Shown here one piece after another: positions 14,215 to 62,689 of a stretch of 64,000 nt of DNA. Position 1 is the first letter of the stretch; every line of letters starts with the position of its first letter. The DNA is from an uncultured Rhodospirillaceae bacterium (GTDB taxonomy: Bacteria; Pseudomonadota; Alphaproteobacteria; UBA828), in assembly GCA_963997635.1 (NCBI GenBank), contig CAXEND010000005.1:74232-138231 (forward strand). The letters run 5' to 3'. The position numbers and the translations under genes were made by a program. The notes below the pieces were generated by a model. The model was given only the letters and a program-made list of their open reading frames with translations. It made no database searches and was not told the DNA's origin.

Positions 14215-14333
14215 TGATATTGCCTGAAATTTTATAATGTAAGAAATGGTTCTCTTGGGTTTATGTGAATTATTTTAGGTGGGTGTATTTCATTTAAAAT
14301 TATTATTTATTAATTTTTGTTCTTTTGAAAGAT

Positions 14334-16240: not shown

Positions 16241-16364
16241 TTTTATCTCCAACATTTGCTAAGTTGCAAGCATGAGGTTTGAAAGATAGGTTGTATTAAT
16301 CTTTGATTACTATAAACATTAATAATTTACTAACTATACTTTATTTAAAGCTAGGAGACAAAGT
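16241..16364. promoter_or_regulatory. Divergent intergenic region (LLM <- -> CMD-family gene)
   Basis: 124-bp AT-rich spacer. No motif confirmed. Confidence 0.2.
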
Positions 16365-22618: not shown

Positions 22619-22636
22619 TTTTACTCCCCCAAGTTT

Positions 22637-24604: not shown

Positions 24605-24674
24605 TTCCCCCCCCCACCGAGCATTTATAAGACTTCGGATATCCAATGTTAAGGTTAGCTGCTAGGAGGTGCAA
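24605..24674. promoter_or_regulatory. Short divergent leader region containing a G9/C9 homopolymer 3 nt upstream of the flavoenzyme start codon
   Basis: On the minus strand the sequence reads GGTGGGGGGGGGAAATG. AGGAGG lies upstream of the GMC gene on the plus strand. Confidence 0.3.
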
Positions 24675-42636: not shown

Positions 42637-42809
42637 CACTGACTCCATTTCTAATCAATGCAATGATTTTATTTTATTACTAGATTTATAAAACAATAAT
42701 GATTTTGAAAACAGACAAATTAAACTTTAATTTTACGCTATTTAACCATCTATTGTTGTATGTTAATTATATTTATTTTTTATGGTTACCTGGTAAAAGG
42801 GAGATTCTC

Positions 42810-45382: not shown

Positions 45383-46288
45383 CTAGTCACTATTAAGTTG
45401 AGTTCCGGCTGCTACCACTTCCAGCATATCCTCCATTTCTTGTATGTCTGAAACAAATGATGGAAAATCTAAAATTAATCTTGTTACGCCAAGTTCTTCG
45501 TATCGTGGTATATCTTGGATAACTCCTTCAGGAGTACCTGCTATAACAACTACAGTTATTTCTATTGTTTTAGGATCTCTACCATTTTCCTCAGACATTT
45601 TGTGAAGAAGTGCCAATGAACTTTCGAGATTGCCTCCTTTACTGTATGTGAAATCAGGTCCCTCTGAAACGACCTGCCAACCATCAGCTAGATTTACTAC
45701 ACGCCTAAAGCAGGAATTGCCATTTCCACCTATGGTAATAGGAGGATGGGGTTTCTGGATTGGCTGAGGGCGGCACTGAACATTAGAAAAGCTAAAGAAA
45801 TCTCCCTCAAAATTAGGTTCTTCTGCTGTCCAAAGTTCTTTCCATATGCGTATATATTCATCTGTACGTGGCCATTTATGTTTTGGTGATAGGTTTAATG
45901 CTTCAAATTCCTCATTTAGCCAGCCTGCACCAGTGCCAACGATCAATCGACCATTTGATAAAACATCAAGAGAAGCCATTTGTTTAGCTGTTTCTATTGG
46001 GTTACGATAGGGTGCTATAAGAACAGTAAAACCAAGACGGACACGTTTGGTATGTCCTGCTATGAATGCCAAACTTGTAAAAGGTTCAAGGTGAGCTCCC
46101 TTGGGATCTGCAATATAGTCAGCTGATTTAGTGTAGGGGTAGGGGGTCTCGATTTTTGTTGGCATTACGATATGATCTGGGGACCAAACTGACTCAAAAC
46201 CTTTTTCTTCGGCAAAATTTGCCATTCTGATCATGTTTTCATGTGTTGCCATAATGCCAAACATCGGTAGCATAAATCCAATTTTCAT
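45383..46288 (-). CDS. LLM-class (F420/FMN-type) flavin-dependent oxidoreductase
   Basis: MKIGFMLPMFGIMATHENMIRMANFAEEKGFESVWSPDH N-terminus typical of the LLM family. Confidence 0.75.
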   Translation of the reverse strand: MKIGFMLPMFGIMATHENMIRMANFAEEKGFESVWSPDHIVMPTKIETPYPYTKSADYIADPKGAHLEPFTSLAFIAGHTKRVRLGFTVLIAPYRNPIETAKQMASLDVLSNGRLIVGTGAGWLNEEFEALNLSPKHKWPRTDEYIRIWKELWTAEEPNFEGDFFSFSNVQCRPQPIQKPHPPITIGGNGNSCFRRVVNLADGWQVVSEGPDFTYSKGGNLESSLALLHKMSEENGRDPKTIEITVVVIAGTPEGVIQDIPRYEELGVTRLILDFPSFVSDIQEMEDMLEVVAAGTQLNSD

Positions 46289-46480: not shown

Positions 46481-48175
46481 TCAAATTTTTTTAAATTTTA
46501 TACCATAAGTCTCTACCGCTTCCGTCTTTGAAATATATCCTAAACGGAGATCTTTTAAAATTTCATTTTCATTCCTATCCTCTGGTTTCCCATATCCACC
46601 ACCTCCAGCAGTGCATTGGCTGATAATATCACCTTTTTTTAGTGAAATTTGGGTTCCTTTGGACACAAAGTCTGGTGATGCAAGCTTAGGGCCATCACCC
46701 CGGTCAATCAGGTAAGTTCCAACCCCTCCGGCTCTGCCTTCGGCAAGACCATTTGCTCCGAATATACAGCGATCAGCAACAAAGGATAGAGAGGCAGAAT
46801 TGGATAAAATTTCATAGTCACGTCGAATTCCCAATCCGCCTCGCTTTCGACCAGCTCCTCCGGTATCTTGCCTTAATTCATATTTAAGTAAGCGTATAGG
46901 CATTGTGAGTTCCAAAGCCTCAGCTGGCATGTTTTTACAGTTTCCGACAATCGAAAAAAGTGCATTTTCTCCATCTTTTTCATCCAGTGCACCCCATCCA
47001 CCTTCTGGATATGAATAAAAAACACTTGGTTCTTGATCTGATCCATTGTTCGTAGAGAGAAGAAGGTTGTTAGAAGAACCGTGGTCTCCAGCAATTATTT
47101 TAGGACCGTAAGGTATTTCTGCAAAAGCCTTTTGAATTACATTTACAATCCGATGAGATGTTTCATTACCACCCGTACATGGCGCTGGAAATTTTGGGTT
47201 AAGTAAGCAGCCTTCTGGTGCAAATATTGTTATGGGACGATATGCACCGTCATTAGCTGGGATAGTGGGGTCAACAGCAGCTTGGACAGCTAAGTAGGTG
47301 GCGGAGGCTGTCATGCCTCGTACCGAATTGACAGGGCCTATTGCTTGTTCATCTGAATCACTGAAATCAAAATTTAACTTGTCACCTTCAACTGTGATTG
47401 CAACATGAATTTTTATTGGTTTTGGGTTAATTCCATCATTATCAAGAAAATCTTCTGCAAACCAGGTTCCGTCGGGCCAACTATTTATTTTTGTTCGCAT
47501 ACGTTTTTCAGATTGGTTGCATATTTCTTGTGCGGCTAGCTGTATAGTTTCAAGTGAATATTTCTCACAAAGATATCTTATACGCCCTACAGCAGTTCGG
47601 TTTGAGGAAAATTGGGCTTCTAGATCGCCACTCATTTCACGAGGAACACGGACATTATTTAAAATTATTTCTTTTAAATCTTGATCTATTTTACCCCTTC
47701 TAACAAATCGAACAGGCGGTATTCGCAATCCTTCCTGAAAGTTTTCTCGTGCTTTACTGTAAAAACTTCCAGGGACTGTTCCACCTATATCAGCGTGATG
47801 AGCACGGTTCGCTGCAAAAGCGATTATTTCCCCGGAGAAGAAAACTGGAGTTATTGCAGTAAGGTCAGGTAAATGTGTTCCTCCACGATATGGGTCATTC
47901 AACAAAACTGCATCGCCTTCCTCAAACGAAGAGATACCAACTTCTTCTATTGCTTCTCTTACAGCAAATTGAAGTGCTCCTAGATGAATAGGTAAAAATT
48001 CTCCTTGTGCCCATAAACGCCCACTGCTATCGAAGACACCACACGAAAAATCTGACCCTTCATTAAAAATGTTTGAGTAAGCTGTTTGCCTGAGGGTTAC
48101 ACCCATTTCACGAGCTATTGATACAAGGTGGCTTCGTATTATGCCGACTGTAATAGGGTCTACTTTTTCGTTCAT
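46481..48175 (-). CDS. Hydantoinase B / oxoprolinase-family protein, second paralog
   Basis: 564 aa. Conserved HyuB N-terminus (DPITVGIIRSHLVSIAREMGVTLRQTAYSNIFNEGSDFSCGVFD). 4-bp overlap with the upstream hyuA paralog. Confidence 0.85.
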   Translation of the reverse strand: MNEKVDPITVGIIRSHLVSIAREMGVTLRQTAYSNIFNEGSDFSCGVFDSSGRLWAQGEFLPIHLGALQFAVREAIEEVGISSFEEGDAVLLNDPYRGGTHLPDLTAITPVFFSGEIIAFAANRAHHADIGGTVPGSFYSKARENFQEGLRIPPVRFVRRGKIDQDLKEIILNNVRVPREMSGDLEAQFSSNRTAVGRIRYLCEKYSLETIQLAAQEICNQSEKRMRTKINSWPDGTWFAEDFLDNDGINPKPIKIHVAITVEGDKLNFDFSDSDEQAIGPVNSVRGMTASATYLAVQAAVDPTIPANDGAYRPITIFAPEGCLLNPKFPAPCTGGNETSHRIVNVIQKAFAEIPYGPKIIAGDHGSSNNLLLSTNNGSDQEPSVFYSYPEGGWGALDEKDGENALFSIVGNCKNMPAEALELTMPIRLLKYELRQDTGGAGRKRGGLGIRRDYEILSNSASLSFVADRCIFGANGLAEGRAGGVGTYLIDRGDGPKLASPDFVSKGTQISLKKGDIISQCTAGGGGYGKPEDRNENEILKDLRLGYISKTEAVETYGIKFKKI

Positions 48176-50202
48176 AATATCGGTTCCGCAGCTTTATTTT
48201 TTACACATTCTAGTATTATACATCCATCATTTAATACAGATGCACATGCTTTAGGTGGAATAACAATTGTTGAGTCGTTCTGCTGTACTATTGCAGGACC
48301 TTCTAATTTTTCTGACTTTTGCATTTCCTCCCTGCTTAAGGTTGGAGTTTTGATCCAACCTTCCTTGGGTCCCCAAAATACAGGACGCGATTCTGTGCGG
48401 TATTTAGTTATCCATTGGGGTAGTGTTTTAGGTATAACCTTTCTTGGTGCTATTGAAGATGCCCTTGCGTGTACAAGCTCGATAGGACCTTCTGGGAAAG
48501 CATGTCCATAACGGTTATTGTGCAGCTCATGAAATAAATTAGCTATCGCTTTAACTTGAATGTCATCTATATGAACTGGAACCCCTAGTTCATAAGTTTG
48601 TCCTTTGTATCTAAGATCAAGCTTGTAACTATATTTTATTTGTTCTTTCCTGACAGTTTCTGGTAAGCGATTATAAGCCTCATCAGAAAGTTCTAAAAAT
48701 AGGGTTTTTAAAAATTTAACTGTAAGATCTAAGAGTGGTCTGTGGACTGTTCTTATTGAATCTATACGTATTTCACTGACCAACATTCCGTGAGCAGATG
48801 CTGCTCCCGGAAAGGGGGGTATTAGTACCTTTTTAATGCCCAGCTCTTTTGCAACATCCCAGCCATGAGCTGGCCCACCACCTCCACTTGCAAACAAAAT
48901 ATAGTCTCTTGGGTCGCGTCCTCGCTCAACGGAAACTTCCCTAACAGCATTGGCCATATTTGCATTCACAAGTGATATAATACCCCAAGCAGTTTCATGG
49001 GTTTTCATTTTGAGTTTTTTTGATATGTCTTCAATGCTTTTTTCAGCAAGGTCCTTTTGAATTTTTATAGTCCCGCCTAATGGTATATCGGCATTATATC
49101 TACCGATAGTAACAGCGGCATCTGTAACTGTAGCATCTGTTCCTGCGTTACCATAGCAAGCTGGGCCTGGCATTGCCCCTGATGATTTAGGACCCACCTC
49201 TAATCCTCCACCAGGATCTACTGAAGCAATACTTCCTCCACCAGCTCCTACAGAAATAATGTCCAGAGATGGTATGGAAATTGGATATCCACCAATTTCT
49301 ATGCCTATCGTGAGGTCAGGCTTTGCATCTGTTACGGCTGCGACATCTGTGCTTGTCCCACCCATGTCCAAGCTTAGTAAATTAGAGAATCCATGCCTTC
49401 TACCAAATTCAGCTGCGGCAATAACACCTCCTGCAGGCCCGGAGAAGAGTGAATAAACAGGCCTATCTATTGTCTCATTAGGAGAAGCCAGACCACCATT
49501 TGATTGCATTACATAGAAATCTCCTTGAAAAGATTGTGATTGTAGCTTCGGAACGACTTCAGATATGTAATGTTTCATTATGGGCTGAGCAGAGGCATTT
49601 ACGACTGTTGTAGAAGTTCTTTCATATTCACGATACAAAGGTAAGACCTCATGAGAGAGTGAAATGCTGATTCCTGGTATTTCATTAGCAATTGCTTTGC
49701 CAACAAGAATTTCATGAGAGGGGTCAAGGAAAGAAAACAATAAGCAGATAGCAACTGATTCAATTTTCAGTTGTTTTAGTTTTGTAATTATTGCGTTGAT
49801 TTCTGAGGATTCTAACGGGAATATAATTTCTCCACTCGCTGATATCCGTTCATCAAGCTCTAGGCATCGATCTCTTGGGATTAGAGGTTTAGGCTTGGTT
49901 TGGCTTAAGTCAAATAAGTCTTTACGATCTGCTCGCATTATTTCCAGAACATCACGAAAACCTTTAGTCGTAATTAAGGCTGTTTGGGGTCCTTGACCAA
50001 CGAGAAGAGAATTCAATACTACAGTAGTGCCATGAACAATTTCATCTACATCTTGAAATGAGTTTGTGGCCATTTTAACTGCTTTTAGAAAACCTTGACT
50101 GATGTTTTTGGGTGTAGTGGGAGTCTTTCCAACAAAGACTTCTCCATCACTGACTGCTACTATGTCCGTAAAGGTACCACCAACATCAACTGCAATTTTC
50201 AT
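48172..50202 (-). CDS. Hydantoinase A-family protein, second paralog
   Basis: MKIAVDVGGTFTDIVAV N-terminus. 676 aa. Confidence 0.85.
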   Translation of the reverse strand: MKIAVDVGGTFTDIVAVSDGEVFVGKTPTTPKNISQGFLKAVKMATNSFQDVDEIVHGTTVVLNSLLVGQGPQTALITTKGFRDVLEIMRADRKDLFDLSQTKPKPLIPRDRCLELDERISASGEIIFPLESSEINAIITKLKQLKIESVAICLLFSFLDPSHEILVGKAIANEIPGISISLSHEVLPLYREYERTSTTVVNASAQPIMKHYISEVVPKLQSQSFQGDFYVMQSNGGLASPNETIDRPVYSLFSGPAGGVIAAAEFGRRHGFSNLLSLDMGGTSTDVAAVTDAKPDLTIGIEIGGYPISIPSLDIISVGAGGGSIASVDPGGGLEVGPKSSGAMPGPACYGNAGTDATVTDAAVTIGRYNADIPLGGTIKIQKDLAEKSIEDISKKLKMKTHETAWGIISLVNANMANAVREVSVERGRDPRDYILFASGGGGPAHGWDVAKELGIKKVLIPPFPGAASAHGMLVSEIRIDSIRTVHRPLLDLTVKFLKTLFLELSDEAYNRLPETVRKEQIKYSYKLDLRYKGQTYELGVPVHIDDIQVKAIANLFHELHNNRYGHAFPEGPIELVHARASSIAPRKVIPKTLPQWITKYRTESRPVFWGPKEGWIKTPTLSREEMQKSEKLEGPAIVQQNDSTIVIPPKACASVLNDGCIILECVKNKAAEPIL

Positions 50203-50223: not shown

Positions 50224-51240
50224 TTATTTTAATGGTTTCCATTCACCCTTTGGTGTCACTGTTTTTACATTAGGTATAATCTCTTCACCAAATTCTTGAA
50301 TTTGATCTTTTAATTCATTTATTGAGCCAGATGGACACATTAGCATACATGTTACTAAAGAATATCCTTCCTCGGCGAGCTCTGCTAAGTGGTCAATGAT
50401 TTGGTTAATACTTCCTGTAAGTGTATGCCTATCTGAGCTTTTTCCTAAAGATTTATTCCCTTTTATGTGTGCCCAAGCAGCAGCAATCATATAAAAATCA
50501 CTGAGATTACGTTTTGTTTTATCAGCTTCACGACGAATTATATCTTGTAATGGTTTATATAGGGCCGGGTTAAATTGTTGATCAAAAAAAAGTGGGTATA
50601 ATCCATCGCAGTTTTCAATTGCTTTGCGAGCTCCAAATGGAGTATTGCCTCCATATAGAATAGGAGGTCTTGGTGACTGTATTGGTTTAGGATCCATAGA
50701 AATATTATTAAAACGATAATGCAAACCTGAAAAATTAATAGACTTATCAGACCAACAATTTTTGTAGATCTCTATACATTCGCTAGTTTTTTCATTGCGT
50801 GTTTTATAGTTAATATTAAGAGCGTCAAATTCTTCTTTTAACCACCCAGACCCAACTCCGAGCAATAATCTTCCGTTAGATAATTGGTCAATCGTCATAA
50901 ATTGCCTGGCATCAGAGAGTGGGTGCCTATAAGGAGCAATTAGAACGGCAGTGCCAAGTTTTATACGTGAGGTCGCTGCAGCTAATGCCCCCATCAGGAC
51001 AGCTCCGTCTAAAATATTGTGCATTGGTTGATATGGTCGCTCTCCTGACGGGTGGGTACTGCCGGAATTAATAGGCATGCATACATGATCGGGAAACCAA
51101 ATCGAATGAAATAATTTGCTTTCAGCTAATTGTGCTATTTCAATGGCAGATATTTCATCAAAAGGTGTATGTTGAAGAACAAAAGCTTCACCCACTTTTT
51201 TACCTAGACCATGTGTATTAGCGTATAGGCCTATTTCCAT
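50224..51240 (-). CDS. LLM-class flavin-dependent oxidoreductase (paralog of 41608..42636)
   Basis: MEIGLYANTHG... with conserved blocks shared with the paralog. Confidence 0.75.
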   Translation of the reverse strand: MEIGLYANTHGLGKKVGEAFVLQHTPFDEISAIEIAQLAESKLFHSIWFPDHVCMPINSGSTHPSGERPYQPMHNILDGAVLMGALAAATSRIKLGTAVLIAPYRHPLSDARQFMTIDQLSNGRLLLGVGSGWLKEEFDALNINYKTRNEKTSECIEIYKNCWSDKSINFSGLHYRFNNISMDPKPIQSPRPPILYGGNTPFGARKAIENCDGLYPLFFDQQFNPALYKPLQDIIRREADKTKRNLSDFYMIAAAWAHIKGNKSLGKSSDRHTLTGSINQIIDHLAELAEEGYSLVTCMLMCPSGSINELKDQIQEFGEEIIPNVKTVTPKGEWKPLK

Positions 51241-51270: not shown

Positions 51271-52176
51271 TTAAATAGGATCCCAGCTGAATATATCTGC
51301 TGAGCGAGTTAGGGGAGCAAAATGTGCTTCTAATGCCGGTATAGCTTGTTCTCCTATAGACTCAACATCCCATCCTTCACTTCGATGAACACTACGAATA
51401 GGCTCATAGGGGTCAAATAGAAAGATCTCATTATGTCTTACCGCGAAAACTTGACCAGTTACGTTGTTAGCATCTTCAGAAGCTAGAAATGCTGCTAGGG
51501 GAGCATTTTTTGCAGGCGTCATTTTTTTTAATCGGGCTACCCTTTCTTTTTGTTCATCAGTTTCTGCTGGTATTTCATTAGTCATTCTGCTCCATGCAAA
51601 AGGCGCTATAGCATTAGATCTTACATTAAATCTTTTCATGTCTAGTGCTATGGCTTTTGACAAAGCACAGATGCCTAATTTTGCTGCAGCATAATTAGCT
51701 TGTCCAAAGTTTCCTATAAGCCCTGAAGTGCTTGTCATATGCACAAAGGCACCTGATTCTTGTTTACGGAAATGTTCAGCTGCCGCACGGCTAAGAAAGA
51801 AACTACCGTTTAGATGAACTCCAATTACGGAAAGCCATTGTTCAGGTGTCATTTTGTGAAAAATGGTATCTCTTAATATCCCAGCATTGTTTATAACAAT
51901 ATCAACACGTCCAAATTCCTTAATTGCCGTATCCACTATAGCACTAGCTCCATCCCAGCTATCTACGCTATTAACATCGATGACAGATCTACCTCCTGAA
52001 GAATCTATTATTTGTTTAGTCTCTTCAGCAGGGCTGTTAGACCCACCTTCTCCTGTTACAGATACGCCTATATCGTTTATAACTATTGAGGCTCCAGTTT
52101 TTGCCAGAGTTATTGCTATTTCTCTGCCAATTCCACCACCTGCTCCAGAAACAATTGCAACTTTTCCTTCATTCAC
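51271..52176 (-). CDS. SDR-family dehydrogenase (3-hydroxyacyl-CoA dehydrogenase-like, MFE-2 N-terminal-domain type)
   Basis: VAIVSGAGGGIGREIA cofactor motif. YAAAKLGICALSKAIALD catalytic motif. 301 aa. Adjacent to a MaoC hydratase gene. Confidence 0.65.
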   Translation of the reverse strand: MNEGKVAIVSGAGGGIGREIAITLAKTGASIVINDIGVSVTGEGGSNSPAEETKQIIDSSGGRSVIDVNSVDSWDGASAIVDTAIKEFGRVDIVINNAGILRDTIFHKMTPEQWLSVIGVHLNGSFFLSRAAAEHFRKQESGAFVHMTSTSGLIGNFGQANYAAAKLGICALSKAIALDMKRFNVRSNAIAPFAWSRMTNEIPAETDEQKERVARLKKMTPAKNAPLAAFLASEDANNVTGQVFAVRHNEIFLFDPYEPIRSVHRSEGWDVESIGEQAIPALEAHFAPLTRSADIFSWDPI

Positions 52177-52247
52177 AGTTTTTCTCCTTACAATGACTTT
52201 TTATATTAACAACTGTTAAGTTTCATATTGATCAATTTCGAAGGTTA

Positions 52248-53093
52248 TTATTTAGAAGTAACATATCCATTACTGAGTACAATTTTTTCTCTTTCAATTG
52301 CTGTTGCCTGAAAAGACCCATTTTCCCATGCTTCAATTAATATTGTATCACCTGGAAAGACGGGTGCCGAGAATCTGGCAGACATACTACTAAACCTTGT
52401 GGGGTCATCATTAAAGATCGTTTGTAAAAGTGATTGGCATGCTATTCCAAACGTACAAAGCCCATGAAGAATTGGCTTATCAAAGCCTGCCTTTTGAGCA
52501 ACCTTGGGATCTATATGTAATGGATTAGGATCACCATTAAGGCGATATAGAAGTGCCTGTTCTGGCCTTGTTTGGATCCTTATTGATGGTAGTGCAGGAC
52601 CGGAAGGATTGGGAGGTAATGGTGGTATATTTCCAGATGGTCCATTGTATCCACCATCGCCACGTAACATAATAGTTCTTTTCTCAGTTGCTAAAAGTTT
52701 ACCACTTATTTTATCAGTGAGTTTTTTCTCTAAATATAAGAATGCACCTTTATTACTGCCTTTATCGACTATATCTGTAATTTTTGTTTTGCCAATAACT
52801 GTGCCTGAACTTGGAATGGGGTTCTCAATTCTGATTTCCTGAGCTGCGTGAACAAGTTTTGTAGCATTGACTGTCGTGCCGGGGTCTCCTAACCAGAAAC
52901 CTGGGTGACCTAAGACCGTGCAGAATGAGGGGATCACTTGTGGACCGTTTGACTCATCAACAAACTGTAATTGCCAAGGGTCAAGTTGATTTTGACCTAT
53001 ACCTACTGATATTGCATATCTAATAGTATCTAATTCTGAAAAATCCTGTTGAACATCAGGTATATTAAAAGCCATTAGTTTGTCGTAATTCAC
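52248..53093 (-). CDS. Double hot-dog MaoC-like (R)-specific enoyl-CoA hydratase (hydratase-2 type)
   Basis: The C-terminal hotdog carries the MaoC motif DPNPLHIDPKVAQKAGFDKPILHGLCTFG. The N-terminal half is also hotdog-like. Confidence 0.7.
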   Translation of the reverse strand: MNYDKLMAFNIPDVQQDFSELDTIRYAISVGIGQNQLDPWQLQFVDESNGPQVIPSFCTVLGHPGFWLGDPGTTVNATKLVHAAQEIRIENPIPSSGTVIGKTKITDIVDKGSNKGAFLYLEKKLTDKISGKLLATEKRTIMLRGDGGYNGPSGNIPPLPPNPSGPALPSIRIQTRPEQALLYRLNGDPNPLHIDPKVAQKAGFDKPILHGLCTFGIACQSLLQTIFNDDPTRFSSMSARFSAPVFPGDTILIEAWENGSFQATAIEREKIVLSNGYVTSK

Positions 53094-53158
53094 TAATCAG
53101 ACCCCTTTTGTTTCTAGAATTAATTTAGCTAAATTTAGATTAGCTACACATTGTCATC

Positions 53159-54361
53159 TTAGCCGTCATAGTGTCCAATAATTGCCACACTAGAAACATT
53201 TTGAACTGGATGTCCTCCTAAATTATGTGTCAGTCCATATTTCATATTATTTATTTGTCTTTCACCAGCACGACCTTGGAATTGTAAAAACATTTCATAG
53301 AGCATACGGAGTCCAGAAGCCCCGATGGGATGGCCAAAACATTTTAACCCTCCGTCAATTTGGCAGGGTATTTGCCCTTCAGCATCAAAACGACCATCAA
53401 GAACCGCCTTCCAGGCTTCTCCTTCGTTTGCAAGGTCAAGATCTTCCATCGTGACCAATTCGGTTATTGAAAAACAATCATGGACTTCTGTAGCACTTAT
53501 TTCTTTTCTGGGGTCTTTTATTTGTGCTTCAGAATATGCTCTTTTGGCGGCAATTCGGGTAGTCTTAATATGGGCTCCATTCCAACTATCAAAACCAGAT
53601 TCTTCCCCATTTGATACGCTTAATTGTAATGCCTTAACTGTGACAATATTTGTTTTACCCAAGCTTAGGGCTATTTCTGGTGTGGTTACTATAGCACAAG
53701 CCGCACCATCACTAACTCCACAACAGTCGAAAAGGCCAATGGGTTCTGCAACCATGGGTGCATTAATTGCTTGGTCATGAGTTATTTTTTTTCTTAGATG
53801 GGCTTTTGGATTACCAAGGCCATTATCATGACTTTTAACAGATACATGAGCCATAGCTCGCTTTAGTTCGTTTTTATCAACTCGATGTGCCCCTCTATAT
53901 CCAGCAGCAAGTTGAGCAAAGGCACCTGGTGCTGAAACTGTAGGAGCGGTTAGGTCGTTAGTGACCCCGCGACCACGTGCGGGTAAACCTCCATATCCCG
54001 TATCTTTTAATTTTTCTACGCCGAGAGCGAGTGCAAAGTCTGCAGTGCCAGACGCAACTGCGTAGCAAGCACCACGGAAGGCTTCAGTCCCGCTTGCACA
54101 CATATTTTCAACATGGGTGACTGGAATATATCGAAGTCGAAGTGCCGTTGATAAAGGGATAGCACTTGGCCCGACATTGACTGCGTCAAAAGCTGTACTG
54201 AGCCATGCAGCGTCTATCTCAGAGCTATCAATTCCTGAATCTTCAATACATTCTTCATATGCTTCTGACATCAGGTCTGCAGGTTCAGACTCCCATCGTT
54301 CTCCAAATTTTGAGCAACCCATTCCCAATATTGCAACTTTATCTCTTATACCTTTAGCCAT
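53159..54361 (-). CDS. SCP2/archaeal-type thiolase (thiolase-fold acetyl-CoA C-acyltransferase-like protein)
   Basis: 400 aa. VAILGMGCSKFGE N-terminus typical of SCPx/archaeal thiolases. NMCASGTEAF candidate nucleophile-cysteine region. C-terminal GHPIGASG. Confidence 0.7.
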   Translation of the reverse strand: MAKGIRDKVAILGMGCSKFGERWESEPADLMSEAYEECIEDSGIDSSEIDAAWLSTAFDAVNVGPSAIPLSTALRLRYIPVTHVENMCASGTEAFRGACYAVASGTADFALALGVEKLKDTGYGGLPARGRGVTNDLTAPTVSAPGAFAQLAAGYRGAHRVDKNELKRAMAHVSVKSHDNGLGNPKAHLRKKITHDQAINAPMVAEPIGLFDCCGVSDGAACAIVTTPEIALSLGKTNIVTVKALQLSVSNGEESGFDSWNGAHIKTTRIAAKRAYSEAQIKDPRKEISATEVHDCFSITELVTMEDLDLANEGEAWKAVLDGRFDAEGQIPCQIDGGLKCFGHPIGASGLRMLYEMFLQFQGRAGERQINNMKYGLTHNLGGHPVQNVSSVAIIGHYDG

Positions 54362-54385
54362 ATTATTTCTCCAAAAATTATTGGA

Positions 54386-55822
54386 CTATTCTGGTGATGC
54401 TTTCCAGAAATATTGTCGCATACCCCTATTTTCATCCAAGTGTTTAATTCGAAAATGCATTTTCGTGCTAATACCAACATCAAAACTTTCAGGATCCAAA
54501 TCTGTAAATTCTACCATCATTCTTCCTCCTCCCTCAAATTCTATGAGACCAAAATATGCTGGAGGTTCCATTGAAAAAACTAGGTGATCTGCGGTGTAAG
54601 TCTTAACCTTTGCAGTAGTTTTGGACATTGAGTGTGATTCTTGGGTATTCCTGGCTCGGCAATTTGGATTTACACAATAGATTGATTTTGGGTATTGAAT
54701 AGTTCCGCATTTAGTACATATACCACCCTTAAAACCAGTAACACCCTCCTTGTTCCGATATTGTGCTGTCAGGGCAGGTGGTCTATCTAATTCAGCCCTT
54801 TTTCCAAATTCACGATTTATATTTCCATTAAAAGTGAGAAACTTTTCATAGTTTTTTTCTTCAACTTTTCTATTTAACCATCCTTCTAAGCCTCGATTAG
54901 GCTGATAGTTTTCTATGAGGTCTGTTACTTCAAATACTAATGCATCGCAACCCTGACCAAAGCTTGATATTACCAATTTTTGTCCAGGCTTAGCCTTTGA
55001 AATTGCAGACACAAGCATGACAAGTGGATGAGCAGTTCCACATATACCAACACTATCAATCATAGTATCAACTGCAGAATCAGTATTAATACCACATTGT
55101 TTAGCAATCGATTCTGCTACACGCTTATATTGGCAGGGCACTATAAGATGGTCGATGTCTGAGCCAGAAAGTCCAACTTTGCCCAAGGCCATATTTATTG
55201 CATTAGGAACAGTTTTTAACCATCCCTCTTGGCGGATCCATCTATCTTCCCAAGTATAATCATAGTCATCTCCACTTGCTCTAAAATGATCTATGAAGTC
55301 ATCATTAATTGATGCAGCCCCAAGAAATTTAAGCCCTGGTTTATCATGACTAACAATTAAAGCTGCAGCTCCATCTCCTGATATCATTTCCATTTGACTT
55401 CCTGCCCGTGCTTTGCGGTTATCAGAAGAGATCAACAAAACATCTTGACCTTGGGCAGAAGCAATATCTAGTGCAGTTAAGAGGGAGGTTGTAGATGCAC
55501 GAAGACTCCCTCCTATATCCATTGTCCTTATGTTATTGTGGAGGTTTAACGCTTCGGCAATAATTCCAGCATTTTGACGAACTGCAAATGGTAGCGTTGT
55601 TGAAGCCAAAATAATGGCTTGGATTTTATCGTCAAGACCACACAAATCTTGAGCCGCCTCAACACCCATTGTTATTGAATCTTCATCCCAGCTACACATC
55701 GTACGTTCGCCTTTAGAAAGGCCTTTAAGAGATGGGTCAAACCAACAGTTAGCTTCAGCAATAACGCTTCTCTGTAATCTTCGGCGTGGGAGATACGCTC
55801 CAAATGCTTTGATCCCAACCAA
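54386..55822 (-). CDS. Thiolase-fold condensing-enzyme-like domain (archaeal HMG-CoA-synthase / KAS-III-like) fused to a C-terminal DUF35 Zn-ribbon/OB-fold domain
   Basis: N-terminal VGIKAFGAYLPRRRL...WDEDSITMGVEAA resembles archaeal HMGCS N-termini. The C-terminal ~120 aa carry CTKCGTIQYPKSIYCVNPNCRARN (a CxxC...CxxC rubredoxin-like ribbon) followed by an OB-fold-like segment. Confidence 0.6.
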   Translation of the reverse strand: MVGIKAFGAYLPRRRLQRSVIAEANCWFDPSLKGLSKGERTMCSWDEDSITMGVEAAQDLCGLDDKIQAIILASTTLPFAVRQNAGIIAEALNLHNNIRTMDIGGSLRASTTSLLTALDIASAQGQDVLLISSDNRKARAGSQMEMISGDGAAALIVSHDKPGLKFLGAASINDDFIDHFRASGDDYDYTWEDRWIRQEGWLKTVPNAINMALGKVGLSGSDIDHLIVPCQYKRVAESIAKQCGINTDSAVDTMIDSVGICGTAHPLVMLVSAISKAKPGQKLVISSFGQGCDALVFEVTDLIENYQPNRGLEGWLNRKVEEKNYEKFLTFNGNINREFGKRAELDRPPALTAQYRNKEGVTGFKGGICTKCGTIQYPKSIYCVNPNCRARNTQESHSMSKTTAKVKTYTADHLVFSMEPPAYFGLIEFEGGGRMMVEFTDLDPESFDVGISTKMHFRIKHLDENRGMRQYFWKASPE

Positions 55823-55975
55823 TTTATTTCTCCCGATAATTCTTGATTATTTGACTTACCCTATGTGGAATAGGAACTAATAGTCAGCTTTGTGGAAAAA
55901 CTATGTTTATAATAGCAGGCAATTCGATATATTCTAGATTATATTTTTCTCCTTATCATAAGAGCGGGGATTCTG
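55823..55975. promoter_or_regulatory. Divergent intergenic region between the thiolase/DUF35 cassette and the Mo-enzyme gene
   Basis: 153-bp AT-rich spacer with a small hairpin (cctat-gtgga-atagg). No motif confirmed. Confidence 0.25.
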
Positions 55976-58363
55976 ATGGAGAACAAATTAAATGATCAAA
56001 TTCAGGGGTTTTGTGCCCTATGTTGGTCACGATGCGGTTGTATTTCAGAAATTAAGGACGGTAGACTAGTCTCTGTTAAACCAGATCCAAGTCATCCGAC
56101 CGGTTCAGCCCTTTGTGCAAAAGGAAAATCAGCACCCGAAAAAATTTATAATAAAGACCGAATTTTGTATCCAATGAAGCGGTCACGACCTAAGGGAAAC
56201 AATGACCCTGGATGGATCAGGATATCGTGGGATGAAGCATTAGATACGATCGTGACGCACCTAAATACAATTTCTGAAGAGTCAGGTGCTGAATCAGTAA
56301 GCTTTGGTATTACTACCCCGGCAGGAACCTCAATGAATGACGGTTATGCGTGGGTTGAGCGTTTTCGTCGGGTTTTTGGGAGCCCAAATGCAGCTATTGC
56401 TATGGAACTTTGTGGTTTTTCACGTGATATGGTTTTCCCATATACATTTGGTGTCCCGTTGCCGATGCCAGAGCATAAGAATTCAGATTGTATTATTTTA
56501 TGGGGGCATAATCCGAGTACGACATGGTTAGCACATGCCAAACGTGTAGCCGATGCAAAAGCACGGGGAGCAAAACTTGTAGTCATTGACCCTCGACGTG
56601 TTGGTCTTGCTGTAAAGGCAGATAGTTGGTTAAGAATAAAACCAGGAACCGACGGTGCTTTAGCTCTATGTTTAGCAAACATCCTCATTCAGCAAAAACA
56701 ATTCGATATGGATTTTGTTAGACAATGGACAAACGGTCCTTTTCTAGTACGTGAGGATAATGGGAGGTTTTTGACTACTCAAGATTTATATTCTGATGGA
56801 TCCAGCCGAGAATTTGTCGTTTGGGACTTGGAAAACAAGAAACATGTGGTTTATGATTCTCAGCAAGGTATATATTTAGGTAATGATATAAATTTTTCTC
56901 TTAGTGGTAGATACACCTTTGAAGGGCATAATGGCCGATTAGTGTGTTCTCCAGCATTTTCTTTATATGCAGATCTATGTGCACAATACTCTCCCAAATA
57001 TGTTGCTCAATTAACACAATTGAAGGAGAGTGAGATCATTGACCTGAGTGAAATGATACGTAACTCAAAGGCACTATCAATCTATATGTGGGCTGGGCTT
57101 GAGATGCATACAAATGCATCTCAAACCAATAGGGCCATTGCAATATTGTATTCACTCACAGGTCATTTTGATAATCCTGGCGGGAATGTAATATTAGAAA
57201 CTACAAAAACAAACGATATTTCCGGTGGTGATGAAATATCTCTTACTCAGAAAAAGAAAGCTCTTGGATATTTGGACAGGCCATTAGGTCCAGAGCAAGA
57301 GGGATGGATTAATTCAGATTCACTCTATAACGGGATTCTTCATTCTAGTCCTTATCCAATTCGTGCTCTTATAAATTTTGGAAAAAATTTTCTATTCTCA
57401 CATGCCGATGCAGGAACTGGTGAAGAAGCCTTTAAGTCACTAGAATTTATGGTTCATATTGATATGTTTGGAAATCCTACTTCTTCTTATGCGGATATAT
57501 TTTTGCCAGTTTGTTCCCCATGGGAAAGAGAGGGGATATCGACAGATTTTGTTGTTGATCAGGAGGCTTCGGGACTTGTCCAGTTTCGAAAGAGTGTTTT
57601 GTCCCCTCTGGGTGAGTCACGCTCAGATATTTGGATCGTTTTAGAATTGGCCAAGAGACTTGGGTTCTCTGAAAAGTTTTGGGGAGGAAATTTTGAACGA
57701 GGCATACAGCATTTTATAGAACCTAGTGGAATAGAATTAAAAGATTTAAAAGAGAATCCTAGGGGCATTAACCTTAACCTTTCAACAAGATACAGGAAAT
57801 ACGCAGAGTCTGTTCATGGATTACCCAGAGGTTTTGAGACACATACTAAAAAAGTTGAGATTTACTCCGAGCTTTTCTTGAAACACGGTTATTCTCCGCT
57901 GCCTAAATATATTGAACCGATGGTAAGTATAGGTATACCAAATATTTATAAAAAAACTTACCCTCTCATTTTAACATCGGGTAAATCCCCACATTTTCTC
58001 CAAAGTCAAAATCGTGGAGAAGAATCACTACGGCGTATGGAGCTAGATCCTCTGGTTGAGTTACATCCTTCAACAGCGGAATTAAGAGGAATCCAAGAAA
58101 ATGATTGGATCTGCATAGAAACTCCTCATGGAAAGTTGCGTGCAAGGGCAAAATTTTCAGACTATTTAGATCCGAATGTTGTATCAGCCACACATGGTTG
58201 GTGGCAGAGATGTGAGGCGCTTGATTGTGATGAATTACCAGTACGTGGAGAAACTTCAGCTAATTTAAATTCAGCTATTGGGAGTGATTTTGTTGATCCG
58301 CTTGGGGGGTCTGTTCCTCATAAGTCTTATGTTTGTGAAGTTTTGAAACTTGATTCTAAATAG
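55976..58363 (+). CDS. Molybdopterin (bis-MGD) oxidoreductase, DMSO-reductase superfamily, cytoplasmic single-subunit type
   Basis: N-terminal 4Fe-4S motif CALCWSRCGC...LCAKG (CxxCxxxC...C-KG). 795 aa of MopB-like catalytic domains and a C-terminal molybdopterin dinucleotide-binding domain. No twin-arginine signal. Confidence 0.75.
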   Translation: MENKLNDQIQGFCALCWSRCGCISEIKDGRLVSVKPDPSHPTGSALCAKGKSAPEKIYNKDRILYPMKRSRPKGNNDPGWIRISWDEALDTIVTHLNTISEESGAESVSFGITTPAGTSMNDGYAWVERFRRVFGSPNAAIAMELCGFSRDMVFPYTFGVPLPMPEHKNSDCIILWGHNPSTTWLAHAKRVADAKARGAKLVVIDPRRVGLAVKADSWLRIKPGTDGALALCLANILIQQKQFDMDFVRQWTNGPFLVREDNGRFLTTQDLYSDGSSREFVVWDLENKKHVVYDSQQGIYLGNDINFSLSGRYTFEGHNGRLVCSPAFSLYADLCAQYSPKYVAQLTQLKESEIIDLSEMIRNSKALSIYMWAGLEMHTNASQTNRAIAILYSLTGHFDNPGGNVILETTKTNDISGGDEISLTQKKKALGYLDRPLGPEQEGWINSDSLYNGILHSSPYPIRALINFGKNFLFSHADAGTGEEAFKSLEFMVHIDMFGNPTSSYADIFLPVCSPWEREGISTDFVVDQEASGLVQFRKSVLSPLGESRSDIWIVLELAKRLGFSEKFWGGNFERGIQHFIEPSGIELKDLKENPRGINLNLSTRYRKYAESVHGLPRGFETHTKKVEIYSELFLKHGYSPLPKYIEPMVSIGIPNIYKKTYPLILTSGKSPHFLQSQNRGEESLRRMELDPLVELHPSTAELRGIQENDWICIETPHGKLRARAKFSDYLDPNVVSATHGWWQRCEALDCDELPVRGETSANLNSAIGSDFVDPLGGSVPHKSYVCEVLKLDSK

Positions 58364-59162: not shown

Positions 59163-59873
59163 CTAAAGTCCCAAATATGCTGCTCTTACACTATCATCTT
59201 TGATAAGATCTTCGGCGGGGCCCTTAAGGGCAAGCGACCCTTGTTCAAGAACGTATCCATAGGAGGCTATACTTAATGCTAATGCTGCGTTCTGTTCGAC
59301 CAATACAACTCCGACATCTTCTTCTTGTGTAAGAGTACTGATTGTTTCCATGATTTTTTGTTCTATTACAGGTGCAAGCCCAATAGAAGGTTCGTCTAGA
59401 AGCAGCATTTTAGGCCCAGACATTAGTGCCCTTCCAAAAGCTAACATTTGTTGCTCACCACCACTTAAATTTCGAGCAAGTTGTCGCCTTCGGTCTTTCA
59501 AAATTGGGAAGTGGTGATAGATCCTGTCCAGATCTCTATTAATACCTTTCTTATCTGAACGAAGATATGCTCCAACCATAAGATTATCGTAAACGCTTAT
59601 ACGAGGAAATAATTCTCGCCCTTCTGGGACTTGGGAAATACCCATTTTTACAATTTTTGAGGGTGAAGCGTTATCTATTCTGTTTCCCAAGAAACGAATT
59701 TCTCCAGAAGCAGGCCTTAAAAGACCTGAAATGGTTTTTAAGAGGGTTGTTTTACCTGCTCCATTACTACCAACGATTGTCGTTATAGTATTCTCTGAAG
59801 CACTAACAGATACTTCTCTTAGAGCGGAGATCAGGTCATACTTTACTTCAAGTTGTTTAATTTCAAGCATCAT
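59163..59873 (-). CDS. livF: Branched-chain amino-acid-type ABC transporter ATP-binding protein (LivF-like)
   Basis: Walker A GSNGAGKTT, signature LSGGEQQMLAFGRAL, Walker B LLLDEPSIGLAP. The start is adjusted to the ATGATG at 59873 that overlaps the livG stop. Confidence 0.75.
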   Translation of the reverse strand: MMLEIKQLEVKYDLISALREVSVSASENTITTIVGSNGAGKTTLLKTISGLLRPASGEIRFLGNRIDNASPSKIVKMGISQVPEGRELFPRISVYDNLMVGAYLRSDKKGINRDLDRIYHHFPILKDRRRQLARNLSGGEQQMLAFGRALMSGPKMLLLDEPSIGLAPVIEQKIMETISTLTQEEDVGVVLVEQNAALALSIASYGYVLEQGSLALKGPAEDLIKDDSVRAAYLGL

Positions 59874-60630
59874 GACCCTCAGATTTTCCCAAATAGGCTT
59901 CAATTACAGCAGGGTGTTTAGTTATTTCATCAGCAGTACCTTCAGCAATTTTTTCCCCAAAATTAATGACAGTTATTTTATCGCAAATACTAAGGACTGA
60001 TCGAACGTCGTGCTCAACTAACAAGATAGTAATCCCATAATCACGTAAACCAGAGATTTTCTGTGCAACATTACTTTTCTCTGTTGGATTAAGCCCTGCT
60101 AGAGGCTCATCAAGCATTAGCAAATTAGGTCGAACTGCTAATGCGGTTGCTATTGAAAGAACTCTTTGCATACCTGCAGGAAGCATTCTTGCTGGGGTAT
60201 CAGCCTCTTCCGATAGATTCATATGCTCAAGAATCCAAGAAGTACTATCTTCAATTGAACTGATGCTCGGGAGCTTCGTGTTGTTTGAAATTTCCGCTGA
60301 CTTTTTATTGGCGTGTATGTGGTGACCCATGTGGACATTTTGGCGAACTGACATGTCTCTGTAGACGCTTGTAAGTTGAAATGTTCTGACCAATCCCCTT
60401 TTTGCAATCCTATTGGGTGTTTTTCCTGTTATGGGTTGACCTTTAAATAAAACTTCTCCTGAAGTTGGCTTTAAAAAACCACTTATGAGATGGAAAGTAG
60501 TTGTTTTGCCTGATCCATTAGGTCCTATAAGCCCTCTGATCTGACCTTCTGGAATTGCCATAGATATGTCTTTGACAGCAACTAGTTTGCCAAACCTTTT
60601 TGCGATATTGTTCACTTCAAGAATTGTCAT
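59863..60630 (-). CDS. livG: Branched-chain amino-acid-type ABC transporter ATP-binding protein (LivG-like)
   Basis: GPNGSGKTT Walker A, LMLDEPLAGLNP Walker B, LivG-type insert. The start is adjusted to MTILEV (60630). Confidence 0.75.
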   Translation of the reverse strand: MTILEVNNIAKRFGKLVAVKDISMAIPEGQIRGLIGPNGSGKTTTFHLISGFLKPTSGEVLFKGQPITGKTPNRIAKRGLVRTFQLTSVYRDMSVRQNVHMGHHIHANKKSAEISNNTKLPSISSIEDSTSWILEHMNLSEEADTPARMLPAGMQRVLSIATALAVRPNLLMLDEPLAGLNPTEKSNVAQKISGLRDYGITILLVEHDVRSVLSICDKITVINFGEKIAEGTADEITKHPAVIEAYLGKSEGHDA

Positions 60631-60637
60631 ATGATTG

Positions 60638-61657
60638 CTATCCGATGTTCTTAGCACTAGAGTTTTTAGCTCTATTAAATAAGATTGGTCTTAGCAGTGC
60701 TAGTAACTTTAAGACTGCCATTTCCAATCCCCCGGACCATATCATGAGTACTGCAATAACACTTGCACCCCACAAAAGAGGAACCCATTCTGCAAAGGCA
60801 CGGAATATTTCTTCCAAGGCTGTTAGGTAAAGAAGCCCAAGAATTGGGCCAAAGAACGTTGATACTCCTCCTACAATTGCAGCAGCAACTAACTTGAACA
60901 TAAGAATGGATCCAAAATCCAAAGGATTTATTGCTCCATTAAAATTGGCTGATAATGCCCCTGCGAATCCTGCAATTACTGACCCTAACACAAAAGGCAG
61001 GGTTCTGTGGCCCCAAGTATTTATACCAATGGATTCTGATAATTCTTCATTTGCTGCTACTGCCTTAATTGTTCTTCCTACTCTAGAAAGATCAAAACGG
61101 TATAGTAAAAGCCAAATGATCAGTGCGATTGCGAGAACAAGATAATAGAAACCTGTTGTTGTATTAAAATCAATTCCCCAGAACCCCTCAGGTCTTGGTA
61201 TAAATGAAATTCCAAAACTACCCCCCGTGATACCTTTGAATTGAATATATGCCTGTCGCAAGGCTTCACCAGCAGCGAACGTACTTAGAAAAAAGTAATA
61301 ATGTCGCGTTCTTAGAACTGGATATGCTATTATTAGAGCAAATAAACCAGAAATCCCAGCACCTAAAAATAGAGTTGCCCAGAATGACCATGGTGTTTCA
61401 AGAGTCATTAAGATAGCAGTAGTATATGCCCCGAGACCAGCTGTTGCTACATGAGAAAAAGACCATCCTCCCATTGTAGTAATCACACGGTAGCCCATAA
61501 CCATAATAGTATTTAGAGCAAATATCACCAGCACGCTTTGCCAGTAGGAGGTTAAGGCATGAGGTAAAGCTACCAGCAGAGGAGTAGCTATGATCGTGCC
61601 TATAAGTGCGTATACAAAGCGCTTTGGTGTAGAGGTTATGAATTGAAGGATTGTCAT
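60638..61657 (-). CDS. livM: Branched-chain amino-acid-type ABC transporter permease (LivM-like)
   Basis: 339 aa polytopic membrane protein. Positioned between the LivH-like and LivG-like genes. Confidence 0.7.
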   Translation of the reverse strand: MTILQFITSTPKRFVYALIGTIIATPLLVALPHALTSYWQSVLVIFALNTIMVMGYRVITTMGGWSFSHVATAGLGAYTTAILMTLETPWSFWATLFLGAGISGLFALIIAYPVLRTRHYYFFLSTFAAGEALRQAYIQFKGITGGSFGISFIPRPEGFWGIDFNTTTGFYYLVLAIALIIWLLLYRFDLSRVGRTIKAVAANEELSESIGINTWGHRTLPFVLGSVIAGFAGALSANFNGAINPLDFGSILMFKLVAAAIVGGVSTFFGPILGLLYLTALEEIFRAFAEWVPLLWGASVIAVLMIWSGGLEMAVLKLLALLRPILFNRAKNSSAKNIG

Positions 61658-62517: not shown

Positions 62518-62634
62518 TGTAGAATCTATCAGCCTCTTGTGCTTATAAATTAGCCATTGTTGTCACATTAAGTCTTTATAAAAATGTAACCAAGCTAATA
62601 TATAATAAATTAAGACTTTAAACGCTCTGACGGA

Positions 62635-62660
62635 AGACACCTAAACTGACTTAGATGTCT
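62635..62660 (-). terminator. Imperfect hairpin between the binding-protein and permease genes of the liv-type operon
   Basis: agacacctaa-actgac-ttagatgtct forms a 9/10-bp stem. No clear U-tract follows. Confidence 0.2.
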
Positions 62661-62689
62661 CCCGCCCTAGCTAAATTAAAGTGGACTTA

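Follow-up and report, generated by a model that had tools for sequence, protein, structure and literature searches.

A cassette of four genes at positions 51271-55822 of a 64,000-nt stretch of DNA from an uncultured Rhodospirillaceae bacterium (GenBank assembly GCA_963997635.1, contig CAXEND010000005.1; the whole stretch is called the window below, and all coordinates are positions in it) probably specifies the three closing reactions of an (R)-specific beta-oxidation in the style of the type-2 multifunctional enzyme (MFE-2), with a thiolase (Thl) scaffolded by a non-catalytic partner protein, Fus. Fus joins in one polypeptide a thiolase-fold domain akin to 3-hydroxy-3-methylglutaryl-CoA (HMG-CoA) synthase (HMGCS), whose active site appears to have been lost, and a C-terminal DUF35 domain; the other two genes encode a MaoC-type enoyl-CoA hydratase and a short-chain dehydrogenase/reductase (SDR). 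Fus-Thl pairs of this type are already known to be widespread, and their core was characterized biochemically in 2026. What the genomic comparison newly suggests is that the "orphan" pair is habitually tied to gene sets for (R)-specific beta-oxidation and occasionally fused to proteins of those sets. An initial annotation of this DNA had the general idea of a cassette for non-canonical, (R)-specific beta-oxidation, and this idea is supported. The four co-directional genes described there are all present as adjoining open reading frames, head to tail on the minus strand at the coordinates then given:

54386-55822, minus strand: Fus, 478 aa, pseudo-HMG-CoA-synthase::DUF35 fusion (Pfam, phmmer against the PDB, AlphaFold2, Foldseek)
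54818-55822, minus strand: Fus residues 1-335, HMGCS/PhlA-like thiolase fold (phmmer alignment to 6esq_I)
54389-54742, minus strand: Fus residues 361-478, DUF35, zinc ribbon and OB fold (PF12172, PF01796)
53159-54361, minus strand: Thl, 400 aa, archaeal/SCP2-type thiolase (NCBIfam PRK06157, PDB matches, motifs)
52248-53093, minus strand: MaoC, 281 aa, double-hotdog enoyl-CoA hydratase 2 of MFE-2 type (Pfam, PDB, motif)
51271-52176, minus strand: SDR, 301 aa, MFE-2-type 3-hydroxyacyl-CoA dehydrogenase (Pfam adh_short, PDB, motifs)

The intergenic gaps are 24 nt (Fus/Thl), 65 nt (Thl/MaoC) and 71 nt (MaoC/SDR). Fus begins at a TTG codon with a GGGAG Shine-Dalgarno sequence 8 nt 5' of it, and the resulting N-terminus agrees with the family consensus MxGIxAFGAYLPR.

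Fus, a pseudo-HMGCS domain joined to DUF35

Fus passes the Pfam model ACP_syn_III_C (37.4 bits, gathering cut-off 26.6), and its closest PDB sequences are PhlA (5m3k_A, 1e-28), the PhlA-like 9skh_A, the archaeal HMGCS chain 6esq_I (1e-20) and MucA (9vbo_A). An AlphaFold model built with 24 homologues (pLDDT 83.9, pTM 0.87) has its closest folds, as found by Foldseek, in the same group (PhlA-like 9skh, 6esq_I, 5mg5_A and MucA 9vbo; TM 0.77-0.85, target-normalised). The proposal that a DUF35 domain is fused behind the thiolase fold depended on its reaching the profile thresholds, which it does narrowly: zf-ChsH2 (PF12172) scores 25.9 bits against 23.2 and OB_ChsH2_C (PF01796) 29.2 against 27.1. 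The assignment is further supported by a phmmer match of residues 364-476 to the archaeal DUF35 chain 6esq_E (7e-5), by a CxxC...CxxxxC zinc ribbon located by regular expression (C369/C372/C383/C388), whose four cysteines never vary in close relatives and persist in ~87-93% of distant ones, and by the model, in which the C-terminal domain is all-beta and follows a linker (residues 337-356) of pLDDT <50. The suggested kinship to the archaeal thiolase/HMGCS/DUF35 complex likewise stands, since Thl, the N-terminal domain of Fus (TM ~0.84 over the target) and its C-terminal domain match chains A, I and E, respectively, of 6esq.

The initial annotation could find no cysteine at the nucleophile position of the fused protein, and indeed Leu107, in the motif GGSLRAST, aligns to Cys114 of 6esq_I. 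In the same phmmer alignment the complete HMGCS tetrad Glu82/Cys114/His238/Asn270 corresponds to T75/L107/P229/I260 in Fus. In 118 close Fus relatives Glu never occupies column 75, nor Cys column 107, nor His column 229, and among 121 full-length representatives of 30-50% identity none has Glu75 or Cys107 and a single one has His229; across the family the former pocket now consists of T, L/Q, P and a variable position, with no conserved Tyr or Cys pair. Judged from these alignments, the missing cysteine is one sign of an old loss that took the entire HMGCS active site. Residues 175-200 (DFxDHFR...DYxWE[ED]RW) form highly conserved loops of low model confidence, such as might be expected where proteins meet.

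A loss of this kind has precedents. In the MucABC complex, whose structure was solved by Liao et al. (Nat Commun 2026; PMC12960953), catalysis resides in the thiolase-type subunit, and both PhlA and MucA lack the E-C-H-N tetrad and are non-catalytic partners of that subunit, while mutation of the tetrad in the archaeal complex abolishes HMG-CoA formation (PMC12960953). The same study counted 1,030 loci in bacteria at which HMGS, ACAT and DUF35 (that is, HMG-CoA synthase-like, acetyl-CoA acetyltransferase-like and DUF35 domains) occur together, 1,001 of them without secondary-metabolite neighbours, and purified one pair from P. fluorescens in which a tetrad-less HMGS is fused to DUF35 and the ACAT keeps its Cys, HDxF and GHx motifs (PMC12960953). 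This complex thiolysed acetoacetyl-CoA and formed neither acetoacetyl-CoA nor HMG-CoA, its activity was abolished by H294Y, and the fused type thus acted as a thiolase, unlike SmaATase and PpATase; it was called an "evolutionary intermediate" without a pathway (PMC12960953). The present pair has the same pattern, so that the module is not uncharacterised in kind, as had first been thought: like PfACAT/HMGS-DUF35 it consists of an HMGS-like::DUF35 single polypeptide with the tetrad lost and of an ACAT with its motifs kept, the His of HDxF bears the number 294 in both, and neither has polyketide synthase (PKS) or nonribosomal peptide synthetase (NRPS) neighbours.

Among known complexes the dead HMGCS-like subunits of PhlACB (5M3K/5MG5) and MucABC (9VBO/9VBT) are the closest match of the Fus N-terminal domain in sequence and fold, and in both the active site lies solely in the thiolase-type subunit, with DUF35 as a clamp. 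They differ in that PhlB and MucC are separate DUF35 proteins of secondary-metabolite clusters, whereas the DUF35 of Fus is fused, and in that PhlC and MucB, which acylate small molecules, no longer have HDxF, whereas Thl keeps HDCF. The archaeal complex, although homologous in all three modules, has an intact HMGCS tetrad, a separate DUF35 protein and a mevalonate context, and carries out two sequential condensations where thiolysis is expected of the window pair. On the strength of these parallels and of the lost pocket, Fus is probably a non-catalytic scaffold partner of Thl, with a dead domain that resembles PhlA and MucA.

Thl, MaoC and SDR and the reactions proposed

Thl passes the Pfam models Thiolase_N and Thiolase_C_1 at their gathering cut-offs and NCBIfam PRK06157 ("acetyl-CoA acetyltransferase") at 656.3 bits against a cut-off of 403, with residues 1-398 aligned. 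Its assignment to the SCP2/archaeal class was correct: the best PDB matches are 7yvy_A (7e-50) and the archaeal thiolase 6esq_A (5e-49), followed by SCP2-type thiolases and BbsB, although the NCBIfam model of BbsB itself gives 123 bits against a cut-off of 750. The match to PhlC is weak and partial (3e-15, residues 271-389, the last third of the protein). Thl retains the catalytic Cys88 (NxCAS; C88-A-S), H294-D-C296-F and G-H344-P, and the Cys88, HDCF and GHP motifs are invariant in 69 thiolases encoded beside Fus homologues.

MaoC carries MFE-2_hydrat-2_N (PF22622) and MaoC_dehydratas (PF01575) domains, both above their gathering cut-offs, together with the hydratase-2 motif YRLNGDPNPLHIDPKVA at residue 183, which has Asn at the [STGC] position; Pfam finds no DUF35 domain in it. 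This fits a hydratase 2 whose N-terminal hotdog is non-catalytic and whose C-terminal MaoC hotdog bears the motif with Asp and His as catalytic residues. Its PDB matches, 7mku_A (2.6e-51) and 1s9c_A (1.5e-47), are peroxisomal enoyl-CoA hydratase 2 and the human MFE-2 hydratase, as befits the double-hotdog hydratase foreseen. The SDR was likewise recognized rightly as resembling the MFE-2 dehydrogenase, for its best PDB matches are the MFE-2 (3R)-hydroxyacyl-CoA dehydrogenases of Candida, rat and human (2et6_A, 3.6e-98; 1gz6; 1zbq). It has the motifs SGAGGGIG, NNAG and Y162xxxK166, and with them the Ser-Tyr-Lys set that defines an MFE-2-type dehydrogenase; its NCBIfam score (PRK07791, 262 bits) is under the cut-off of 373. 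The closest homologues of SDR and MaoC are thus those of peroxisomal MFE-2 (HSD17B4), and the thiolase belongs to the SCP2/archaeal class, as in the peroxisomal pairing of MFE-2 with SCPx. The window differs from the peroxisome in having the MFE-2 domains as separate genes and no SCP2 domain in the cassette, and in the constant pairing of Thl with a pseudo-HMGCS::DUF35 protein, for which there is no peroxisomal counterpart.

The proposed sequence would start from an imported or ring-opened carboxylic acid. At the stage of the 2-enoyl-CoA, MaoC would hydrate the double bond to the (3R)-hydroxyacyl-CoA, SDR would oxidize this to the 3-oxoacyl-CoA, and Thl would cleave the latter thiolytically with Cys88 as nucleophile and the assistance of the HDCF and GHP motifs; the (R)-stereochemistry of the MaoC and SDR steps is predicted from their homology to the MFE-2 domains. 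Fus would perform no chemistry and, with its fused DUF35, would be an obligatory structural partner of Thl. By homology to 6ESQ, 5M3K and 9VBO, DUF35 may clamp the thiolase-fold dimers and create a shared CoA-binding chamber at the interface, and formation of such a complex in this organism is likewise suggested by analogy. The catabolic direction is argued by what the P. fluorescens complex did in vitro, by the genes that accompany the relatives (acyl-CoA dehydrogenases (ACADs), electron-transfer flavoprotein (ETF), CoA-activating enzymes and transporters) and by the lack of an enoyl-CoA reductase: no enoyl-CoA reductase, polyhydroxyalkanoate (PHA) synthase, PKS or NRPS is present among the annotated genes of the cassette or its window neighbours, and no medium-chain dehydrogenase/reductase (MDR) or other enoyl reductase appears among the recurrent neighbour clusters of Fus loci.

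Peroxisomal MFE-2/SCPx handles 2-methyl-branched and bile-acid intermediates. By this analogy and from the gene setting of the window, the substrate is likely a branched, alicyclic-derived or otherwise bulky acid; a literature search found no paper that assigns a substrate to an SDR-MaoC-Fus-Thl cassette. A report on oestrogen degradation deals with a ChsH2-like MaoC::DUF35 protein and not with the Fus family.

Neighbourhoods, natural fusions and allelic replacement

The Fus family is large. A first contig scan with the Fus protein alone returned only close relatives of >=61% identity, and sampling was widened with an alignment-based metagenome scan, a plasmid collection and an exhaustive HMMER search. 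The family counts >4,156 matches at 90% clustering, a lower bound, and the HMMER search gave, in a 50%-identity library, 501 representatives at E<=1e-30, fragments included, of which the best 150 contain at least 121 full-length fusions. RefSeq labels the proteins "OB-fold domain-containing protein" or "KAS III C-terminal domain-containing protein" and the neighbour "acetyl-CoA acetyltransferase". For the comparison of gene order that the initial annotation had recommended, 104 loci were collected, their genes called by a heuristic GC3-aware selection and their neighbours clustered, which left 61 non-redundant Fus lineages at <80% identity.

The Fus-Thl pair is widespread in Proteobacteria and its adjacency is near-universal in the relatives, mostly among acyl-CoA genes. 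Of the 56 non-redundant loci having any downstream gene, 48 have Thl as the first or second gene after Fus (+1/+2). Where at least three genes are available on both sides (n=33), Thl is present in 32 loci and other acyl-CoA genes lie within five genes in 26; these neighbours include an MFE-2-like SDR (14 loci), ACAD (11), MaoC (10), AMP-ligase (10), family-III CoA transferase (7), crotonase (6) and an acetoacetyl-CoA-synthetase-like protein (3). Same-strand adjacency of Fus and Thl by chance is unlikely. Contrary to the pathway-less view of the PfACAT study, therefore, the window pair and many of its relatives sit with an MFE-2-type hydratase and dehydrogenase and with genes of acyl-CoA catabolism.

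The four genes occur together, in shuffled order, in Alpha- and Betaproteobacteria. The order of the window, Fus-Thl-MaoC-SDR, recurs in high-GC alphaproteobacterial metagenome-assembled genomes (MAGs) of 66% identity, directly 3' of LivKHMGF; among cultured organisms the order is SDR-MaoC-Fus-Thl in Sphingomonas paeninsulae (D3Y57_RS02220-02235) and SDR-MaoC-Fus-Thl-ACAD-CoA transferase-TctC in Variovorax paradoxus (strain VAI-C, INQ48_38065-38080), several metagenome loci have Fus-Thl-ACAD-SDR-MaoC-CoA transferase, and in one lineage Fus-Thl precedes a 694-aa FadB-type protein with enoyl-CoA hydratase and 3-hydroxyacyl-CoA dehydrogenase domains (ECH+3HCDH). A gene of the phytanoyl-CoA dioxygenase (PhyH) family directly follows the cassette in one alphaproteobacterial MAG (L021, 14548-19495), which also has more hydantoinase A/B pairs near it, and another lies four genes from the cassette in Sphingomonas paeninsulae (L105, 15462-16307); these PhyH neighbours are a hint of branched-chain acyl-CoA substrates.

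Naturally extended forms of Fus are also found, namely Fus::MFE-2-like SDR::SCP2 of 911 aa, Fus::SDR of 800 aa and Fus::SCP2::SCP2 of 722 aa (P0127, P0166 and P0124). At one locus (L110, 4284-10640) the genes run ACAD / TetR / MaoC::SDR::SCP2 (709 aa) / Fus::SDR::SCP2 (911 aa) / Thl, and the 709-aa protein is a bacterial MFE-2 with hydratase-first domain order. Such gene fusions are a classical sign that proteins are coupled in function and often also physically. In these relatives the SCP2 domains attached to Fus or MaoC::SDR recall MFE-2/SCPx and point to lipophilic acyl-CoA substrates. A further candidate (P0270), with a Fus N-terminal domain joined to ATP-grasp and molybdopterin-binding domains, was set aside as probably chimeric or mis-assembled.

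Comparison to the nearest relative, MAG SAT1367 (L001, L019), reveals a discontinuity. Over 47.7-51.6 kb and 56.1-63.8 kb almost all 300-bp bins are 93-100% identical in DNA, but identity drops to 65-84% in the block between them (51600-56100), which comprises the 5' half of SDR, all of MaoC, Thl and Fus, and the promoter region of Fus. The proteins encoded in the block diverge much less than its DNA, at 80-94% identity; those of the flanks are 96-99% identical. From the next lineage (L025/L002) the two alleles of the cassette are roughly equidistant. The cassette thus appears to have been swapped as a block by homologous recombination, an allelic replacement that is consistent with the four genes acting as a unit.

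Fus could be more than a solubility partner and nucleate a beta-oxidation metabolon, a tentative proposal that is doubtful at present. A CoA-tethered intermediate could then swing between active sites by way of the common CoA chamber that stems from the archaeal complex. This reading draws on the natural fusions, on the conservation of the four genes in shuffled orders, on the block replacement and on the conserved loops at residues 175-200 of Fus. A precedent for the docking of SDR and MaoC on such a core is found in S. acidocaldarius, where a ketothiolase/DUF35, an (R)-ketoacyl-CoA reductase and a MaoC dehydratase form a stable anabolic complex for fatty acid synthesis (FAS) (bioRxiv 10.1101/2024.07.05.601840). 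The enzyme classes are the same, but that complex is anabolic, employs an MDR enoyl-CoA reductase and a stand-alone DUF35 protein and has no HMGCS-like module, and a physical assembly of the window proteins is putative.

Alternatives, surroundings and significance

The main rival to catabolic thiolysis is a biosynthetic, reverse beta-oxidation in which acetyl-CoA and an acyl-CoA would be condensed, reduced and dehydrated and Fus would pull the unfavourable Claisen step by channelling. The S. acidocaldarius complex, in which the same three enzyme classes and DUF35 work anabolically (bioRxiv 10.1101/2024.07.05.601840), speaks for it, as do the (R)-stereochemistry, which is typical of biosynthesis, and the closeness of Thl to the archaeal condensing thiolase 6esq_A. 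It is nevertheless unlikely, because the fused P. fluorescens complex solely thiolysed acetoacetyl-CoA and made none from acetyl-CoA (PMC12960953), because no enoyl-CoA reductase, PHA synthase or acyl carrier protein (ACP) gene lies in the cassette or nearby, because genes for ACADs, ETF, CoA transferases or ligases, transporters and once a FadB-type enzyme accompany the relatives, and because with a dead HMGCS domain the exergonic second reaction, by which archaea pull the condensation, is missing. Restoring that second step, that is, plain HMG-CoA synthesis for the mevalonate pathway as in the archaeal complex, can be suggested from the overall three-module homology and had been named at the outset as what an intact Cys-His-Glu triad in an alignment to archaeal HMGCS would mean. 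No such triad exists in Fus, where Glu82, Cys114, His238 and Asn270 are all replaced; the NCBIfam HMGCS models score below their cut-offs (161 bits against 244, 110 against 353), and no mevalonate-pathway genes occur among the annotated genes of the window, so that the residue analysis in effect refutes this function.

The absent cysteine of Fus had been taken initially to suggest aldolase or retro-aldol chemistry. On this view the Cys-less protein would cleave a 3-hydroxyacyl-CoA at a branched or tertiary carbon in the manner of the steroid side-chain aldolases Ltp2-ChsH2 and Sal-Shy. Those systems and the benzoylsuccinyl-CoA thiolase BbsAB do resemble the window in combining an SCP2-type thiolase-fold subunit and DUF35 in the catabolism of bulky CoA esters, and DUF35-dependent thiolase-fold aldolases without a nucleophilic Cys exist (PMC12329534), as no Cys stands at the Fus nucleophile column. 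However, in Ltp2 and Sal it is the SCP2-thiolase-fold subunit that lacks the nucleophile and has YDHF/YDCY in place of HDCF, and DUF35 is fused to the hydratase (PMC12329534); neither feature is seen in Thl or MaoC. Fus has the HMGCS/PhlA fold with no conserved Tyr or Cys pair and has lost the whole tetrad family-wide, Thl, the SCP2-type subunit, retains the complete thiolase set, and the cassette encodes a dehydrogenase that an aldolase route would bypass; BbsA, moreover, is a free DUF35 protein, and none of the three systems has an HMGCS-like module. The aldolase suggestion is rejected as very improbable because Thl keeps HDCF and DUF35 is not on the hydratase, unlike in Ltp2/Sal. No more credit can be given to a Friedel-Crafts C-acyltransferase of PhlACB/MucABC type acting on a small-molecule acceptor and not a CoA ester: the Fus N-terminal domain is most similar to PhlA, folds near PhlA and MucA and has lost the tetrad as they have, but PhlC and MucB lack the HDxF that Thl keeps, Thl is only weakly and partially PhlC-like, no type III PKS or NRPS-PKS is nearby, and the assayed P. 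fluorescens fusion acted as a thiolase (PMC12960953).

Several points weigh against a scaffolded catabolic thiolase as well. Orthology to the P. fluorescens pair is at most hinted at, by the shared number of His294 and the length of 400 aa, and the neighbourhood counts come from a heuristic gene caller with one Pfam-annotated representative per cluster and no null model. The window operon contains no acyl-CoA dehydrogenase, CoA ligase or CoA transferase, and the nearest AMP-binding gene is at 17013-18566, which leaves the entry of the substrate into the cycle unexplained. (R)-specific SDR and MaoC pairs are biosynthetic too, as in PhaB/PhaJ and the Sulfolobus FAS complex, and the scheme gives no role to the luciferase-like (LLM) oxidoreductase and the hydantoinase A/B genes on the probable shared transcript.

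The genes and regions around the cassette are as follows:

55823-55975, no strand assigned: divergent intergenic region between Fus and a molybdopterin oxidoreductase gene, presumed promoter (sequence)
50224-51240, minus strand: LLM-class oxidoreductase, co-directional, 3' of SDR (Pfam/NCBIfam)
48172-50202, minus strand: hydantoinase/oxoprolinase-family A subunit, co-directional, downstream (Pfam/NCBIfam)
46481-48175, minus strand: hydantoinase/oxoprolinase-family B subunit, co-directional, downstream (Pfam/NCBIfam)
59163-63976, minus strand: LivKHMGF-type ABC transporter, upstream on the same strand (synteny comparison)

The gaps SDR/LLM oxidoreductase/hydantoinase A/hydantoinase B are 30, 21 and -4 nt, and the LLM and hydantoinase genes probably share the transcript of the cassette, an arrangement kept solely in the close relatives L001, L019, L025 and L002. 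A single sigma-70-like match lies in the divergent region (55959-55931, minus strand). Consensus scans for promoters and terminators gave nothing above shuffled sequence (26 matches against 31.6 expected and 12 against 9.1, respectively) and are uninformative, so that the extent of the operon is judged solely from gene spacing. Divergent from Fus is a gene for a 795-aa molybdopterin oxidoreductase with an N-terminal 4Fe-4S domain (55976-58363, plus strand), in which no twin-arginine leader is obvious by eye and which reaches the cut-off of no NCBIfam model; close relatives keep it beside the cassette, and L010 has a 56%-identical copy 3' of its cassette.

The window as a whole contains at least six LLM oxidoreductases and two HydA and three HydB hydantoinase-family genes. 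Genes of the luciferase-like, TIGR03619-type family are at 15260-16255, 19537-20550, 41608-42648, 45383-46288 and 50224-51240, and besides the hydantoinase genes at 46481-50202 there is a tandem HydB-HydB-HydA set at 3867-9591; this set of paralogues is unusually rich and is similar to repertoires to which the oxidation of recalcitrant marine organic matter has been ascribed as a proposal. At 12313-16255 on the minus strand a 633-aa protein resembling flavin-containing (FMO) and Baeyer-Villiger (BVMO) monooxygenases, an alpha/beta-hydrolase-3 esterase and an LLM oxidoreductase are encoded in a row, and a BVMO with an esterase is the classic arrangement for opening cyclic or aliphatic ketones. 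Two adjoining genes of ~670-680 aa at 20573-24646 combine Oxidored_FMN (old yellow enzyme, OYE) and pyridine-nucleotide-disulphide-reductase domains in a 2,4-dienoyl-CoA-reductase-like architecture, and a divergent GMC oxidoreductase lies beside them. Other features include an uncommon fusion of ABC permease (BPD_transp_1) and ATPase in a 576-aa importer of peptide/opp type (2112-3842, plus strand), and fused urease gamma and beta subunits of 242 aa (31360-32088, plus strand) within a ureF-ureAB-ureC-ureG-ureD cluster. A 596-aa protein (43529-45319, minus strand), as read from its translation, has a hydrophobic N-terminal leader, MORN-like repeats (YxGxWxxxxxxGxG) and a long low-complexity tail, and its gene sits between LLM/hydantoinase genes and an SDR.

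The genomic context suggests that the Fus-Thl pair is the working thiolase of (R)-specific beta-oxidation, probably of bulky or branched acids, and not a pathway-less intermediate. If Fus does nucleate a metabolon, the ~1,000 "orphan" bacterial HMGS/ACAT/DUF35 loci would constitute a widespread and unrecognised type of beta-oxidation complex instead of evolutionary leftovers. The finding does not establish a new kind of system, but it offers a modest refinement for annotation and for the understanding of how monooxygenase- and hydantoinase-rich marine heterotrophs finish degrading ring-opened compounds.

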